A stretch of 64,000 nt of DNA from an uncultured Acidimicrobiia bacterium (GTDB lineage: Bacteria > Actinomycetota > Acidimicrobiia > IMCC26256 > JAENVU01). The notes beneath the pieces were generated by a model. It saw only the letters and a list, made by a program, of their open reading frames with translations. It did not search any database and was not told the DNA's origin. Position numbers and translations under genes: made by a program. Location of the stretch: contig CAWCMX010000001.1 of assembly GCA_963796755.1 (NCBI GenBank), forward strand, positions 1,491,995-1,555,994. Reading direction: 5' to 3'. Below, in pieces: positions 21,467 to 42,869 of the stretch. How positions within the stretch are numbered: position 1 is the stretch's first letter; each line of letters opens with the position of its first letter.

Positions 21467-22832
21467 GTGGTCCAGTCGATCGATGATCAGCGGGCGAGCC
21501 GGCGCAGCGCCGCGCGCATCCCACCGCACAACCTCGAGGCCGAGGAGTCGCTGCTCGGCTCCATGCTGCTGTCGCGCGACGCCATCACGGCGGCGGTCGA
21601 GGCCCGGGTCGACGCGAGCGACTTCTACAAGCCGGCCTACGGCCACATCTTCGAGGCGGTCTGGTCCCTGTACGAGCAGGGCGAGCCGGTCGACCCGGTC
21701 ACGGTGGCCGAGGAGCTGCGGCGGGCCGGTCTGCTCGAGGCGCTCGGCGGCAAGGGCACGCTGACCCAGATCCAGGCGTCGACCCCCGCGTCGGCGAACG
21801 CCGGGCACTACGCCAAGATCGTCAGCGAGCTCGCGCTGCTCCGCCGGCTCATCACGGTGTCGGGCGAGATCGCCGAGTCCGCGTACAACCAGCCCGACGA
21901 CGTCACCGAGACCGTGGACCGGGCCGAGGCGATGGTCTTCGAGGTCGCCGAGAAGCGGATCTCCGAGTCACTGGTGCGGGTGTTCGAAGCCGTGACCGCG
22001 ACGGTCGACCAGCTCGAGGCGCTCTACGGCGAGAGCGACACCATGACCGGGGTGCCGACCGGCTACACCGAGCTCGACAACATCATGCTGGGGCTCCAGC
22101 CCTCCAACCTCATCGTCGCCGCAGCCCGTCCCGGCATGGGCAAGACCAGCTTCGCGCTCGGTGCCGCGGCGAACGTGGCGATGGTGAGCCGCCGACCGGT
22201 GGTGTTCTTCTCGATGGAGATGGGCGCGGTCGAGCTCACCAAGCGCATGCTCGCCGCGGAAGCGCGCGGTCGATGCGCGCAAGCTGCAGACCGGTGACCT
22301 GAAGGACGCGGACTGGAGCCGGCTGAACGCCGCGATCAGCCACCTCGGCGAAGCGCCGCTGTTCATCGACGACAACCCGCACTGCACCGTGATGGAGATG
22401 CGCGCCAAGGCGCGGCGGATCAAGGCCCGCCACGGTGACCTCGCGCTCGTCGTCGTGGACTACCTGCAGCTGATGAGTTCCCCGCGGCGCTCGGAGAACC
22501 GTCAGGTCGAGGTGTCCGAGCTCTCGCGGGGCCTGAAGATCCTCGCCCGGGAGCTCGACTGCCCGGTGATGGCGCTCTCGCAGCTCAACCGCCAGCTCGA
22601 GTACCGCCAGGACAAGCGTCCGATGCTCGCCGACCTCCGCGAGTCGGGCTCGATCGAGCAGGACGCTGACGTCGTGCTGTTCATCTACCGCGACGAGGCG
22701 TACAACCCGGACTCCGACCAGCGCGGCGTAGTCGAGCTGATCGTCGCCAAGCACCGCAACGGCCCCACCGGCATGGCGCGACTCGCCTTCCTCGACCACT
22801 TCGTCAAGTTCGCCAACATGGCCCGTGAATAG
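21467..22832 (+). CDS. dnaB: Replicative DNA helicase DnaB; one apparent +1 insertion at about 22268; no intein
   Basis: Motifs seen: PPHNLEAEESLLGSMLL, Walker A AARPGMGKTSFAL, ..VVDYLQLM.., SQLNR..E.R.DKRP.LSDLRESGSIEQDAD. Dropping one G at 22268/22269 restores ..EARVDARKLQTGDL... Confidence 0.9.
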
Positions 22833-26838: not shown

Positions 26839-27899
26839 CTAGCTGCACGTCTGCGCGGCGAGCCGGTCGACGGGGAGCCACTCCGTCGGAGCGCCTGGAT
26901 CGATCTGCGAGGTCGCGAAGGTGTTGACGCCGAACGAGTCGTTCGGGCTCTTGAACCGACCGTTCGTTCGCCTGCGTCGGCCTTCAGCCACTTCACCGGT
27001 GAGGTGTACGGGGGGATCTTCGATGCCGGGACGGTGGAGTCTCGCCAGCACGACGTGACTCGGGTCGTAGCCCGCAGCGGTGATCGCGATGACGGCGAGC
27101 GACGGTCGAGTTCGGGTCGGGCGGAGCCGAACGACTGCCACGATCCGTCCGCCTGATGGTTGTGCGCGAGGAACGTGAGGCCCTGGCGGAGATCGGGATC
27201 CGTGCGCTTGGCGCCGCGGCCGGCGACGAGCGCCTGGATGGCGAGCGCGGTCGTGTCGGTGTCTGCGGGGGCGGCGACACCGGTCGGGTCGCCGGCGAAG
27301 TTCCAGCCGCCGTCGGACTCCTGGGCGGCGCGGATGAACGCCAGCGTGTTCGGCCGGCACGCCACCGAGCTTGCGCTTGGCCATCGCCGCGATACAGCGT
27401 GGCATTGAACGCTGCCGTACGAGCCGTCGGACCTGTGTCGCGGCATCGATGATCGCCCGCAGGTTCACCGAGTGGTCCTTGTCCGGGTTGAACTTGGTGA
27501 CCGAGAGGCCGAGCGGCCGCGCGACGAGCTGGACGATCTTCGCGGCCTGCCCGGCGTCGATACTCGGAGTCCGCGTAGTCGTCGATCGCGTGGAGTGCGG
27601 AGTTCGAGCCCTGCTTCGTCGCCAGGACGGCGGCAGCGCCTCGCTCCGGCTCCAGGTTGGCCGACGTCTGCGCGTTCTCGGCGATCGCGAGCACAGCGTC
27701 CGGAGTCTCGAAGCCGGGGAAGCCGGCGACCTCGAAGCTGCCGTCGGCGAGCTGCTGGGACTTGAGCCACGCTCGTGGCGGTCTGTGACTTCGCCTTGGC
27801 CCCGTTGTCGCCGAAGCCCGTGGAGCGGAACCCGCTGAGCGCGAGCACGAGGACCACGGTCCCGGCCGCGACGGCGAGCCGTCTGATGTTCGTCTGCAC
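26839..27899 (-). CDS. Secreted prenyltransferase/terpene-cyclase-like (alpha/alpha-toroid repeat) protein; four or more apparent frameshifts
   Basis: GTG at 27899 follows GGAGGA with 6 nt spacing. Signal/TM is RRLAVAAGTVVLVLALSG. Repeats of the type QQLADGSFEV.., ESDGGWNFAGDP..DTDTTALAIQAL, and HQADGSWQSFG..NSTALAVIAI occur. It lies directly downstream of a cobalamin riboswitch. Confidence 0.7.
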
Positions 27900-27904
27900 G
27901 TTGG

Positions 27905-28135
27905 TTCCTCCGTTGGCCCCTGTCCTCGAGGGCCGGTCAGCCGCGGTGTGCGGCGTGGGTACGACGCCAGCCACAGGTGTGGGTGGCGGTCCGCGGCCGG
28001 TACTCGGGCTTCCCTCGTCGAGGGACACCGTTGCGGGTCAGCGCCGGACTCTCACCGGACTTCCCCGACCGCGAACATCGGCTGGGCGCTACCGAAAGCG
28101 GCGCGCCCTTCGCTTCCAAAGATCCCGGAGGGCGA
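27905..28135 (-). promoter_or_regulatory. Cobalamin riboswitch, proximal copy B; approximate bounds
   Basis: Minus-strand RNA reads ..GGUCGGGGAAGUCCGGUGAGAGUCCGGCGCUGACCCGCAACGGUGUCCCUCGACGAGGGAAGCCCGAGUACCGGCC... This shows the conserved cobalamin-riboswitch core and a B12-box-like segment. It ends at the SD and GTG of the downstream CDS. Confidence 0.75.
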
Positions 28136-28254
28136 CGGCCGGACGTTCACTGCCGGGCGCCCTCCGGCGGCCTTCCAAAGATCTCAGGTGGCGCGACGAG
28201 GCGCGTGATCGATGACCGGGGCTCAGACGCAAGGTGCTCACCTCCGCGGGCCCT

Positions 28255-28475
28255 GGTTCCTCGAGGGCCTCGCCCCCGCCCGGAGGCGGATCGGCTCGGA
28301 CCCACCGGCGATGCCGGCAGGTGGGCGGTGGGCATCCTGGCTTGCAGCCGGGGTGCGGCTGCTTACAGTTGCGGGTCAGCGCCGGACTTGCACCGGCTTC
28401 CCCTGCTCGCAGCTCCCTGCGAACCACACCGGACATCCGGGCCCGGCGTCACCACTCCGCCGGTGATCATACGCA
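28255..28475 (-). promoter_or_regulatory. Cobalamin riboswitch, distal copy A; approximate bounds
   Basis: Minus-strand RNA reads ..GAGCAGGGGAAGCCGGUGCAAGUCCGGCGCUGACCCGCAACUGUAAGCAGCCGCACCCCGGCUGCAAGCCAGGAUGCCCACC... The 20-nt core GTTGCGGGTCAGCGCCGGAC is shared with copy B, 339 bp away. Confidence 0.75.
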
Positions 28476-28502
28476 CGGGTCCTGCGCGGGCGCACAGGCC
28501 GG

Positions 28503-29608
28503 TCAGGCGAGCAGCTTCCGGACCGACGCGACGATCCGGTCGAGGTCGGTGTCCGCGAGCGTGGGGTGCACGGGAAGCGAGAGCACCTCGCGTCCGGCCC
28601 GGTCGGCGTTCGGGGTGTCGATCAGGTCGAGTGCCGGGTGGTCGCGGTAGCAGTCGTAGTCGTAGACGGGCCGGGGGTAGTAGATCCCGGTGCCGATCCC
28701 GGCTTCGGTCAGGCGTGACGCCAGCTCGTCGCGGCCGATCCGAGCTTCCTCGGTGACCCGCACCGTGTACTGGTGGAAGACGTGCGTCCGCCCGGGCATG
28801 ACCTCCGGTGTGATCAGGCCCGGGATGTCCGCGAGGCCTTCCGACAGCCGGGCCGCGTTCTGTTGACGCGCGCGCTGGTCGTCGTCGCGAGTCTCTCGAG
28901 CTGCGGGATCCCGACCGCAGCCTGCAGATCCGTCAGGCGGTAGTTGTGCCCCGGGACCTCGTACTCGTAGCGGTTCCGCATCCCTTGGTTGCGGAGGAGA
29001 CGGAGACGGTCGGCGAGTGCTTCGTCGTCGGTCGTCACGAGCCCACCTTCGCCCGTCGTGACGTTCTTGGTGGCGTAGAGCGAGAAGCACCCGAGGCCGA
29101 AGCTCCCCACCGCGCGCCCGTCGAGCTCGGCTCCGTGGGCCTGCGCCGCGTCCTCGACGACCGCGATCGAGCGCTCCTGCGCGATCGGCACCAGCCGACC
29201 CATGTCGGCCGGCTGCCCGTAGAGGTGCACGGGCATCAGCACCCGAGTGCGGCTGGTGCACGCGTCGGCCACCCGCTCGGGATCCATGCAGAAGTCCCGG
29301 AGGGAGATGTCCGCGAACCGCGGCGCCGCGCCGACCTCCAGGATCGCGTTGAGCGTCGCGACGAAGGTGAACGGACTGGTCACGACCTCTTGGCCCGGTC
29401 CGACCTCGAGCGCCTGCAGCGCCGCGACCAGCGCCGTGGTCCCGGAGCTGACGGCGACCACGTGCCGGACCCGAGCCACGTCGGCGAAGCCGGCTTCCAG
29501 CCGGGCCACCATCGGCCCTTGCGCCAGGTGTCCCGACCGGAGCACCTCCAGCACGAGCCGTTCCTCGTCGGCCCCGAGCCGGACTGTCGAAATGGGGATG
29601 TCGATCAA
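28503..29608 (-). CDS. DegT/DnrJ/EryC1/StrS family PLP-dependent sugar aminotransferase; one apparent frameshift near 28870
   Basis: Reads LRSGHLAQGPMV..VAVSSGTTALVAAL..VTSPFTFVAT..PVHLYGQPADM..EDAAQAHGA..FSLYATKNVTTGEGG.., then ..HVFHQYTVRV..GIGTGIYYP. Confidence 0.85.
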
Positions 29609-29699: not shown

Positions 29700-32593
29700 T
29701 CAGTCGACGTCGGGCACGAAGATGTCGAACGTGACCTCGTCGGCCGGCATCGGCTTGGCGAAGTAGTAGCCCTGGTAGGTGTCGCAGCCGAGTCCGTGCA
29801 GCGCCTTGAGCTGGTCGATCGTCTCGACGCCCTCCGCGATGACGGAGAGGTGCAGCGACTGGGTCAGGCCCACCACGGCCCGCACGATCGCCTCGCTCTC
29901 GGCGTCACGGCCGAGGCCGTCGACGAAGGAGCGGTCGATCTTCAGCGTGTCGACCGGGAAGCGCTTCAGGTAGGCGAGCGACGAGTAGCCGGTGCCGAAG
30001 TCGTCGATGACGAGGTGCACGCCGAGCTCGCGGATCGCGTTCGAGCGTCCGCGCCGCGCCGGCCGCGTCGTCCATCAGCGTGCTCTCGGTGATCTCGAGC
30101 CACAACGCGTCCGGCTCCAGGCCCGAGCGGGTGAGCGCGGCGGCGATGTTCGCGACGACGTCGGGGTCGCCGAGCTGGCGGCCGGAGAGGTTGACGCTGA
30201 TGTGGAGATCCGCCGCGGCGGGGACCGTGGTCTTCCAGCGCGCGGCCTCGGCGCACGCCTTGTTCAGCACCCAGATGCCGAGCGGCAGGATCAGACCGGA
30301 CTCCTCGGCGATCGGGATGAACTCGTCCGGCGTGATCGGACCGTTCGGGTGCGGCCAGCGGGCGAGCGCCTCGAGCCCGATGATCCCGTCGGTCCCGTAG
30401 CCGACGATCGGCTGGTAGAAGACCGCGAGCTCGTCGTTGTCGAGCGCGAGACGCAGGTCGCGCTCGATCTCGGTACGGCGCTGGGCGCGCTCGCGCAGCG
30501 TGTCGTCGAGCAGCTCGACGCGCGCCCGGCCGCGCTCCTTGGCGGTGTACATCGCGACGTCGGCGTCGCGCAGCATCGCCTCGGGGTCGGCGAGCCCGCT
30601 CTCGACGCACGACACTCCGACGCTGGCGGTGATGACGACGTCGCGCCCGGAGGAGACGGGGATCGGCTGCGCGATGACGTCCGCGATCTCGCAGGCCCGG
30701 CGGCGGGCGGACTCGATGTCGGCGAGGTCGGGGCAGAGGACGACGAACTCGTCGCCGGAGAGCCGGGCCACCGTGTCGATGGAGCGGGTCGTCTGCTGGA
30801 GCCGCCGGGCGACCGCGGTCAGCACCTCGTCGCCGACGAGGTGGCCCTGCGTGTCGTTGACGACCTTGAACCGGTCGAGGTCGATGAAGAGCACACCGAC
30901 CCGCGAACCACCCCGCCGCGCGTGGTCCAGCGTCTGGCGGAGGTTCTCGATGAAGACGGGACGGTTGGCGAGGCCCGTCAGCGCGTCGTGGGTGGCCTGG
31001 TAGTTCAGCTGGCGCTCGGTCCGGCGGCGCTCGGTGACGTCCGAGAACGAGCAGACCATGCCGTACGGGAGGAGGTCGTCGTGGCGCAGCGGTCGTGAGT
31101 TCAGGGAGAGCCAGCGCTGCTCCCGGTCCAGGAGCTCGATGCCGATCAGGACGTTCGTGAACGACTCGCCGGTGCGCAACGTCCGCACGGTCGGGTGCTC
31201 GTCGTCGGTGATGAGGAACCCGTCGGGGTGGCGGGCGTGGAGCTCGTCGCTGAACACGGTGTCGAGGCGCTCGCCGACCATGATCCGCCGGCCCATGATG
31301 CTCTCGGCGGCCCGGTTGGCCGCGGTGATGACGCCCTGGTCGTCGCTGACCACGATGCCCTCCTCGAGGGACGCGACGACCGCGGTGTACCGCTCTTCGA
31401 GGGCCCGCCGCGCGGCTTCGGACCGCCGCCGTTCGGTGATGTCGGCGCAGACGGCGACCGCGCCGGTGACCTGGTGGTCCTGGTCGAGCACGAGTGCCAC
31501 GGAGATCCGCACTTCGAGCAGGGTGCCGTCGGACCGGCGGTGCACCGTCTCGAGGTGCTTCGCCGACTCGAGACCGAGCCGGGAGTCGGCGCCGACGACA
31601 TCGGCGAACTTCTGGCCGATGACCGCGTCCCGGGTCCAGCCGTACATCTCTTCTGCGGCCGGGTTCCAGCTGTCGATCCGGCCGTCGGCGTCGAGTCCGA
31701 TGATCGCGTCGGAGACGTGCTCGACGAGCTTGGCCTGGTAGCGCATCGTCTCTTCGGCCTTGCGGCGCAGCGAGAGGTCGCGCAGGATCACCTGGTACGC
31801 GGGGTCGACCGTCCCACTTGGTGCGCACGCTGAGCGACTCGACGACGATGTTGCTGCCGTCGAGGCGCACGAGGGTCGCTTCGGCCGGCTTGGTCGCCGC
31901 CTCGTTCTCCTTCAGCGACGCGATCCGCTCGAGCGTCTCGAGCAGGGAGTCGGGGTGGATGAACTGGGTCAGCGACTGGCCCAGGTAGTCGTTCATGTCG
32001 TCGACGCCGACGAAGTCGGCCGCGGCCTTGTTCCCCCAGCGGATCAGCCCGTCCTCGTGCACGACGATGCCGTCCGGGCTCAGCTCGAGGAGCAGGCGGT
32101 AGCGGTCGGTCTGCTCCTGGAGCGCCTGCTCGGCCTCGCGGTCGTCCGTGACATCGGCAACGACGCCGACGCAACCGGTGATGGAACCGCCGGCGCCGAA
32201 CACCGGCTGGGCGCGGACGAGCAGCACCCGCTCCTTGCCGTCGCGATCGAGGATGACCCGCTCGAGCTCGTAGTGGTCCCAGGGACCGGCGCCTTCGACG
32301 ACGGTGATCACCGGATCGACGAGCCACGTCGCGAGATCGGTGCACGCCTCGCCACCGGGCAGCTTGAACGTCTCGGGGTCCGCCCCGAGGACCAGCGTCA
32401 GGGAACCCCGCCAGCGGATCGGGTGGACGGCGCGGTTGTGCTCCCACGTCGCCATGCGGGCGGTCGCGAGCGCGAGGTCATGACAGGCGGCCAGCCCACG
32501 AGCCTGCCGCGACGCGATCGACGTGGGCGCGGCACCTTCGCGAGACCGGCGATCCGGTCCTCCGTTGAGTAGATCTTTCGTGAGCCTTCCCAT
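29700..32593 (-). CDS. Multi-PAS diguanylate cyclase/phosphodiesterase (GGDEF + EAL); two apparent frameshifts near 31800 and 30030
   Basis: Several PAS-like repeats are followed by the GGDEF region ([22 protein letters not shown]) and the EAL region ([27 protein letters not shown].. ..[37 protein letters not shown]). Confidence 0.85.
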
Positions 32594-42795: not shown

Positions 42796-42869
42796 TGGAG
42801 CGGGTGACGAGAATCGAACTCGCGTTCTCAGCTTGGGAAGCTGATGTTCTGCCTCTGAACTACACCCGC
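42796..42869 (-). tRNA. tRNA-Gly (anticodon CCC), CCA encoded
   Basis: Minus strand reads GCGGGTG-TA-GTTC-AGAGGCA-GAAC-A-TCAGC-TTCCCAA-GCTGA-GAAC-GCGAG-TTCGATT-CTCGT-CACCCGC-T-CCA. This folds as a 74-nt cloverleaf whose anticodon loop is TT-CCC-AA. Confidence 0.9.

Follow-up and report, generated by a model that had tools for sequence, protein, structure and literature searches.

The 64-kb window analysed here (the whole stretch of 64,000 nucleotides, from an uncultured Acidimicrobiia bacterium) contains two cobalamin (vitamin B12) riboswitches in series, here called A and B, in the leader of a minus-strand gene for a secreted protein, here called Y. Covariance-model matches and comparison with related loci confirm A and B as two real riboswitch units, each made up of an aptamer, a platform hairpin, a Shine-Dalgarno (SD) sequence and a start codon. 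The best explanation of the arrangement, and one that we consider rather probable, is that A and B are two functional OFF switches on one mRNA transcribed from a promoter upstream of A, that both control Y, that the pair arose by loss of a gene, here called X, and that the two switches are coupled through a short upstream open reading frame (uORF); ligand binding, the OFF polarity and the relay step in this account are predictions from sequence comparison. What appears to be new is a conserved cobalamin doublet, purely translational, with a first switch that would act on a vestigial uORF and with a probable history of cistron loss that can be retraced. The relatives used throughout (numbered with the prefix L) come from a comparison set of two metagenome contigs and 80 GTDB species-representative loci encoding Y homologues. 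The elements of the leader and the regulated gene are as follows.

28466-28471, minus strand: TATGAT, putative -10 element serving the entire leader, in register with its counterparts in relatives
28310-28441, minus strand: cobalamin aptamer A (RF00174, 55.3 bits, E = 5e-11), with a P2 hairpin and without the P7-P11 extension
28241-28309, minus strand: expression platform A, with a C-rich anti-SD (CACC..CC), two hairpins, a P13-like hairpin (28269-28249) and the SD GGAGG (28245-28241)
28089-28232, minus strand: uORF of 47 codons, TTG to TAG, the probable vestige of gene X, whose start context and stop position match those of X in L012
27978-28088, minus strand: cobalamin aptamer B (RF00174, 32.5 bits, E = 1.7e-4 for the whole 64-kb window), minimal, without a P2 hairpin and with a variant B12 box
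27897-27977, minus strand: expression platform B, with linker hairpins, a P13-like hairpin (27934-27915), the SD GGAGG (27911-27907) and the GTG start of Y (27899-27897)
26842-27899, minus strand: regulated gene Y, a secreted alpha/alpha-toroid ('prenyltransferase/squalene oxidase repeat') protein, frameshifted in the assembly

Scanning of the whole window with Rfam at gathering thresholds gives exactly two cobalamin matches to RF00174, both on the minus strand, independent of each other and full-length, which is the outcome expected by the covariance-model check proposed in the initial annotation of this DNA, where two cobalamin riboswitches had been claimed on this strand. The sequences quoted there are all present on the minus strand (27897-28476), and the B12-box-like segment reported after each core aligns in both cases to the B12 box of the model. 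The reported spacing of the cores is right in kind and slightly off in its exact figure, the core starts being 337 nt apart (28401 and 28064) and not 339 nt. The score of aptamer B is marginal (32.5 bits versus an RF00174 gathering score of 31.5); orthologues of A score 55-65 bits on RF00174 and orthologues of B in relatives 29.5-52 bits, and because B-type orthologues reach such scores and the helices of B covary, the match to B is not attributable to chance. Amongst the B copies, that of L002 scores 29.5 bits on RF00174, just under threshold, and that of L006 (2428-2512) is best matched by RF01689, the model of adenosylcobalamin (AdoCbl) class II riboswitches (AdoCbl-II; 34.2 bits versus a gathering threshold of 36.5). 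B-type aptamers fall on the border between these two models, and scans at gathering thresholds will therefore overlook some tandems of this kind.

The conserved core is present in both copies and invariant across orthologues (GGGAA at J3/4, the P4/L4 element GGUG..CC, GCUGACCCGC in L5 and the B12 box AGCC..ACC), with the B12 box of B taking the form of a conserved variant, GCCCGAGWACC. Outside this core the two architectures contrast, in that A has a 5' hairpin and a P2 and B has neither, P6 also differs, and the B12 box/J6-3 segment reads AAGCCAGGAUGCCC in A versus AAGCCCGAGUACCGG in B. The P6/P7-P11 (P8-P12) extension that marks class I is absent from both copies, which have 11 nt (A) and 8 nt (B) where the model has 62-64 nt. 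Both aptamers thus appear class-II-like in architecture although they are scored as RF00174, an assignment that does not extend to the IIa and IIb subclasses; J3/4 is GGAA in both, and the UCU J6/3 motif quoted for class IIb occurs in neither.

The A-then-B leader is found upstream of Y in nine other Acidimicrobiia loci (L001-L007, L014 and L019), and the tandem loci, taken with the window, include eight GTDB species representatives. A further species representative, L008 (2607-3003), has kept A (60.7 bits) together with its SD and start codon and has lost aptamer B, with a second P13-like hairpin and SD retained. Apparent tandems in L045 and L081 proved to be false positives of a regular-expression search within coding sequence. 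Despite assembly indels, both aptamers of the window equal those of its closest relatives, L001 and L003, except at a few positions, and aptamer B is identical to that of L003. When pairs are counted over the consensus fold, 94.5% of cells are paired, compared with 30-48% for slid partners; double-sided changes occur in 17 of the 64 pairs of aptamer A and 19 of the 46 pairs of aptamer B, and for neither aptamer did any of 500 column shuffles give a count as high. Identity within the clade is 77-91% for aptamer A, 71-89% for platform A, 82-95% for aptamer B and 96-100% for the P13-to-SD segment of B. Four-fold degenerate sites of Y have an identity of 0.44-0.67 among clade members versus 0.41 expected from composition, and are thus essentially saturated. 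With the synonymous sites of Y saturated and the two units still 77-95% identical between loci, selection is acting on both. The conservation of A and its platform equals that of the non-synonymous positions of Y and, set against saturated neutral sites, argues that A is not a decaying relic.

The position of likely promoters indicates how the two units are transcribed. A TANNNT hexamer is present upstream of A in 10 of the 11 loci of the tandem clade (TATGAT in seven, TAAGAT in L002, TAGGAT in L006 and TAGGGT in L014), the exception being CATGAT in L008. Amongst loci with a single Y-proximal riboswitch (L010, L011, L013, L016-L018, L020-L034, L037, L046, L061 and L078), TANNNT lies ~27 nt 5' of the aptamer core in 24 of 24 cases (e.g., TAGGTT, TAGAGT, TATGGT), where it would be the expected actinobacterial -10 element, predicting a transcription start site at P1. 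The B units of the tandem loci, without exception, and that of L012 show TAGCGC, TAGCCC, TAGTCG or no such element at this place, T being absent from position 6 throughout, and the stop codon of X (in L012) or of the uORF (in the tandem loci) sits where the 'TAG' of the single-locus hexamers sits. A scan of 27400-28700 for intrinsic terminators and sigma-70 promoters found neither, a result that is uninformative for actinobacterial promoters. Because TANNNT is missing from B, TATGAT is conserved before A and the scan found no terminator in between, A and B most likely share a single transcript starting upstream of A; the placement of the tandem on one leader in the initial annotation is therefore indirectly supported, both units being conserved and covarying.

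Both expression platforms appear to be translational, having SD-proximal hairpins and no terminators. A hairpin of the form GGCCC-UCGAGGA..-GGGCC, then GGAGG and then a start codon are common to A and B, in agreement with the similarity of the 3' ends noted earlier, and a stretch of 12 nt (GGCCCTCGAGGA) is identical between the platforms. The P13-like hairpin of A can be written GGCCC-UCGAGGAAC(C)A-GGGCC (28269-28249), with the TTG start at 28232. In the consensus fold of platform A, the invariant CACC..CC just 3' of the aptamer pairs with GG-AGGUG of the uORF SD, forming a predicted anti-SD:SD helix that encloses three hairpins, the last of which is P13; the inner hairpins covary, and as a model of an SD-sequestering domain the fold is plausible. 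The placement of B is that of the single riboswitches in this family; the P13 hairpin of B, with a covarying stem and an invariant loop, ends 3-4 nt before the SD of Y.

The origin of the tandem is indicated by relatives in which X is still present. X and Y are linked in three gene orders, nearly always behind a cobalamin riboswitch: riboswitch-Y with X farther along (~39 loci, mostly more distant), riboswitch-X-Y (L009, L015, L026, L035 and L036) and riboswitch-X-riboswitch-Y (L012 and L063). In L012, a near outgroup, a 333-codon X lies between the same two riboswitch types that flank the uORF of the window. The start context of X in L012 (GCGGAGGTGAGCACGATG) is matched by that of the uORF (GCGGAGGTGAGCACCTTG), and the distance from TAG to core B is 21 nt for X of L012 and 24 nt for the uORF. 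The uORFs of L004, L005, L006 and L007 (17, 17, 6 and 24 codons, respectively) all end at the same TAG, 22-23 nt before core B, and uORF termini faintly resemble those of X (..SPGHRSR.. versus MPGRRSR.., and ..RRAPSG* or ..RRARRFR* versus ..RRGRARVAPD*). When all riboswitch units are placed in a distance tree, those of type A (together with the lone riboswitch of L008) group with riboswitches that lead operons in other genomes and those of type B with the intercistronic riboswitch of L012 and with single Y-proximal riboswitches; the A and B of one genome are never sisters. The tree of Y recovers the tandem loci as a monophyletic group that has L012 and some single-riboswitch loci as its sister and is nested among riboswitch-X-Y lineages. 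Most likely, on this evidence, the tandem is what remained after deletion of the interior of X in an ancestral operon of the order riboswitch A-X-riboswitch B-Y. Such a deletion would have left the SD, the start codon and, in most loci, the stop position of X as a short, sequence-unconstrained uORF between the riboswitches; in sister lineages A and X would have vanished entirely, with B gaining a -10 element at the old stop-codon position.

The way in which A could influence Y is suggested by the pattern of constraint on the uORF. A start codon follows the GGAGG of A by 5-11 nt in 11 of 11 loci, comprising seven lineages with different local sequence (chance 0.22 each, or ~0.22^7), the uORF peptide is not conserved, its length (6-47 aa) is unconstrained, and no locus has a uORF that stops short of the 5' edge of aptamer B. 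With A, its SD and the uORF start under purifying selection, translation of the uORF most likely feeds forward to Y, since selection on B12-gated initiation at a meaningless reading frame would make no sense unless the ribosomes passing there had an effect on Y or on the leader farther downstream. In the proposed mechanism, riboswitch B would mask or unmask the SD of Y directly and riboswitch A that of the vestigial uORF; ribosomes on the uORF would run up to or into aptamer B and would either keep B unfolded or shield the ~340-nt leader from premature termination or decay, such that full expression would need B12 to be off both switches. More doubtful than the overall explanation, and to be taken as tentative, is its specific form as a two-stage translation-coupled relay, in which the sole remaining role of the uORF would be the delivery of ribosomes to the 5' edge of B or into B, blocking the folding of B or shielding the leader from Rho or RNases. 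If the relay is true, the two B12 sensors would be mechanistically coupled, with an ultrasensitive response as the outcome, and would not work as two independent locks.

Several observations weigh against this account. The TAG of the uORF (28091-28089) lies ~190 nt upstream of the GTG of Y (27899), so that coupling by termination-reinitiation, as in the ppe2 system discussed below, cannot apply. The anti-SD:SD helix of A is invariant, and covariation therefore cannot test it; a partner of the invariant P13 loop (CUCGAGGAAC) for an L5-L13 kissing loop was sought by eye in the aptamers, where only 2-3 bp are possible. For the relay in particular, it counts that the terminator scan found nothing in the leader, including between A and B, and that the spacer has no rut-like C>G skew, the latter a weak negative because the spacer bounds are unreliable (e.g., 71 nt for the 144-nt uORF of the window). 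The deletion scenario leans mainly on one outgroup (L012) and on crude neighbour-joining trees. Finally, the uORF frame in L001, L002, L003 and L019 does not end at the conserved TAG, and in L008 (402 codons), L014 and L019 the reading frame after A runs in frame into Y with no stop between; this variation occurs mostly in indel-prone long-read metagenome-assembled genomes (MAGs), but may be real.

The length of the spacer between the units differs greatly among loci, and in L014 core B lies only ~75 nt from the uORF start. In the subclade of the window, L001 and L003, the spacer contains an additional structure.

28125-28167, minus strand: hairpin within the uORF, with a direct repeat GATCTTTGGAAG on either side (28183-28172 and 28124-28113), restricted to the window/L001/L003 subclade

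This hairpin belongs to a segment of ~100 nt (28113-28183 in the window), also confined to these three loci, in which two or three direct repeats (CCGGAGATCTTYGGAAG) surround a perfect 10-bp stem (CCGGAGGGCG..CGCCCTCCGG), and the copy number of the repeats differs between the window and L003. The hairpin was considered as an attenuator and rejected, given a fold no better than that of shuffles (z = -0.99) and its restriction to one subclade.

Other explanations of the tandem place its origin or its function elsewhere. The initial annotation had attributed it to duplication of a complete leader unit, from aptamer to start codon; such an origin, taken as a recent event selected for a sharper B12 response, now appears very improbable. 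The core, the identical 12-nt platform stretch, the GGAGG and the start codon do recur in both units, but A and B differ in architecture (5' hairpin, P2, P6 and B12 box), each is closer to units in other genomes than to the other, and in L012 the same two riboswitch types are separated by a gene of 333 codons. Nor can the shared 3' hairpin speak for recent duplication, since the platform motif CYCTCGNGGW is lineage-wide, occurring 90-230 nt downstream of 77 of the 103 aptamer cores in these loci compared with 0.019 expected per 140 nt; when aligned locally, units A and B have only the universal aptamer core in common, an outcome that is uninformative on duplication. An ancient duplication yielding the A and B lineages is possible. 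With X, the direct target of A, gone, with the peptide and length (6-47 aa) of the uORF unconstrained, and with single B-type riboswitches sufficing in 24 related loci, it could also be supposed that only B matters for Y and that A is an undecayed leftover regulating a meaningless uORF. This is unlikely in view of the conservation of aptamer A and its platform, which equals that of non-synonymous positions of Y while neutral sites are saturated, the compensatory changes within the clade, the retention of the SD and start codon in seven lineages, and the example of L008, which kept A yet lost aptamer B.

A division into two transcription units, in which A and the uORF would make up a separate gene for a small B12-responsive RNA or peptide and B-Y would have a promoter of its own in the spacer, merits equally little credence. 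The TAG before B does occupy the same position as the -10 'TAG' of the single-riboswitch loci, and actinobacterial promoters are hard to predict, the sigma-70 scan having found nothing anywhere in the region. Nevertheless, the hexamer before B lacks the conserved T at position 6 in every tandem locus and in L012, versus TANNNT in all 24 single loci, no terminator follows A, and the uORF peptide is not conserved. Somewhat more credible, though still improbable, is that A and B sense different corrinoid forms or differ in affinity, resulting in a two-threshold or OR-type response and not in simple redundancy. The differences between A and B in P2, P6 and the B12 box/J6-3 segment agree with this, as do the position of B-type copies between RF00174 and the class-II model RF01689 and the presence in Mycobacterium tuberculosis of two B12 switches with different isoform preferences (PMC11260477). 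On the other side, no selectivity determinant can be assigned from the sequence, both copies having GGAA at J3/4 and neither having UCU at J6/3. Such a difference in sensing is compatible with the preferred explanation of two OFF switches coupled through the uORF, and not exclusive of it.

Tandem cobalamin riboswitches of the same class are not new in themselves. AdoCbl doublets were listed in 2006 (Sudarsan et al.), and 26 of them were counted as 'pseudo-cooperative', with multiple expression platforms, by Sherlock et al. 2022 (PMC9481103), who did not see the aquocobalamin (AqCbl, class II) type in tandem. The suggestion in the initial annotation that the arrangement is novel therefore goes too far: doublets as such are known, and no literature report was found of a tandem cobalamin riboswitch in Acidimicrobiia or Actinomycetota, with the host lineages of the 26 doublets outside that search. 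Like the AdoCbl doublets, the window has two complete cobalamin riboswitches with their own platforms, most likely on one 5' leader, and both would be expected to respond to one class of ligand as OFF switches. It differs from them in that both platforms appear translational, the first would gate a vestigial uORF and not the main reading frame, neither aptamer has the P7-P11 extension, the host belongs to the Acidimicrobiia, and the origin is probably traceable to cistron loss. The arrangement is that of a same-ligand tandem, in which both aptamers are complete, belong to one class, share a strand and have platforms of their own, with only the 47-codon vestigial uORF between them; it is not that of a glycine-type dual aptamer with one shared platform, the platforms being separate, the spacer varying in length and the uORFs ranging from 6 to 47 codons.

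A closer parallel for the first switch is found in M. tuberculosis ppe2, where a compact translational B12 OFF switch precedes a poorly conserved uORF (uPPE2) that is required for PPE2 expression through termination-reinitiation at an AUGA overlap (Kipkorir et al. 2024, PMC11260477). Both are actinobacterial compact B12 switches with a truncated P6 extension, GGAA at J3/4 and no UCU at J6/3, and the predicted first target of A, like that of the ppe2 switch, is the SD of a short, poorly conserved uORF. By analogy, a switch that acts through a uORF, as in ppe2 (PMC11260477), may be counted as a precedent for the preferred explanation. The stop of the ppe2 uORF overlaps the ppe2 start, whereas the uORF of the window ends ~190 nt upstream of Y with a second complete riboswitch between. 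The riboswitch-uORF-Rho systems, such as the Mbox uORF of M. tuberculosis (PMC12810186), have, as predicted for A, a translational platform controlling a small uORF, and an untranslated leader that is thought to be exposed to premature termination; in contrast, the window has no detectable rut-like C>G skew or terminator, and a role for Rho here would be purely conjectural. The intercistronic riboswitch operons of L012 and L063 share with the window a B-type aptamer between cistrons that would gate only the distal one, and they appear to represent the ancestral state, from which the window differs in that the proximal cistron has shrunk to 47 codons.

To our knowledge, work on same-ligand tandem riboswitches usually presents them as a means to a sharper response and leaves their origin unexplained. 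The present locus offers a traceable one, the apparent stages of which can be found in living genomes: from riboswitch-Y with a distant X, through riboswitch-X-Y and riboswitch-X-riboswitch-Y, to either the uORF-containing tandem or a lone riboswitch that has gained a new promoter. If true, this would document how tandem riboswitches can arise when an operon with an intercistronic riboswitch loses a cistron. The locus is also a natural test case of whether a translational riboswitch can act on a distal gene via a vestigial uORF.

The proteins encoded by the two genes are themselves of interest. The stitched product of Y matches intact 347-aa homologues from Acidimicrobiia MAGs over 100% of its length with up to 82% identity, and it has a signal peptide and a confident alpha/alpha-toroid prediction (AlphaFold 2, mean predicted local distance difference test score 88.9), for which the top fold matches are type II terpene cyclases (template modelling score ~0.6). 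A role of Y as a transcobalamin-like corrinoid binder was set aside as an idea only, transcobalamin being a weak generic toroid match (E ~1e-2) that ranks after the type II terpene cyclases. X, which is linked to Y across the class, comprises a signal peptide, a conserved Cys-containing domain, a low-complexity linker rich in P, S, T and G, and a C-terminal transmembrane helix with an Arg-rich tail. It was found in L012 (1795-2796), L036 (1871-2917), L063 (1624-2799) and ~45 other loci, is not present elsewhere in the window, and gave no Pfam match at E 0.01 and no match to PDB sequences. X and Y weakly match the NCBIfam families SCO2322_fam and SCO2321_fam, respectively, whose namesakes are presumably adjacent genes in Streptomyces coelicolor, judging by their locus-tag numbering. 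X and Y may form an uncharacterised B12-related cell-surface system, and the SCO2322/SCO2321-like pair is flagged here as a candidate for a widespread B12-regulated surface system in Acidimicrobiia.

The window has a GC content of 70%, and frameshifts are frequent across its genes, including dnaB (21467-22832), the DegT-like gene (28503-29608), Y (26842-27899) and a PAS/GGDEF/EAL gene (29700-32593). The essential dnaB is among the genes split over several reading frames, and Y needs approximately ten frame corrections within 1 kb. The source of the window is probably a long-read metagenome assembly rich in indels, such that conclusions based on open reading frames there, including the frame of the uORF, need care. 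The leader is preceded on the same strand by the DegT/DnrJ/EryC1 aminotransferase gene, which ends at 28503, and Y is followed by the gene for NucS. Directly past the stop of the DegT-like gene and just upstream of the putative -10 hexamer lies a GC-rich hairpin (CCTGTGCG-CC-CGCGCAGG, 28481-28498), which may be a terminator without a U-tract and appears to be conserved in L001 and L003. Farther along the window, the scan also identified a tRNA gene on the minus strand (42799-42869; RF00005, 68.3 bits) that has no relation to the riboswitch pair.

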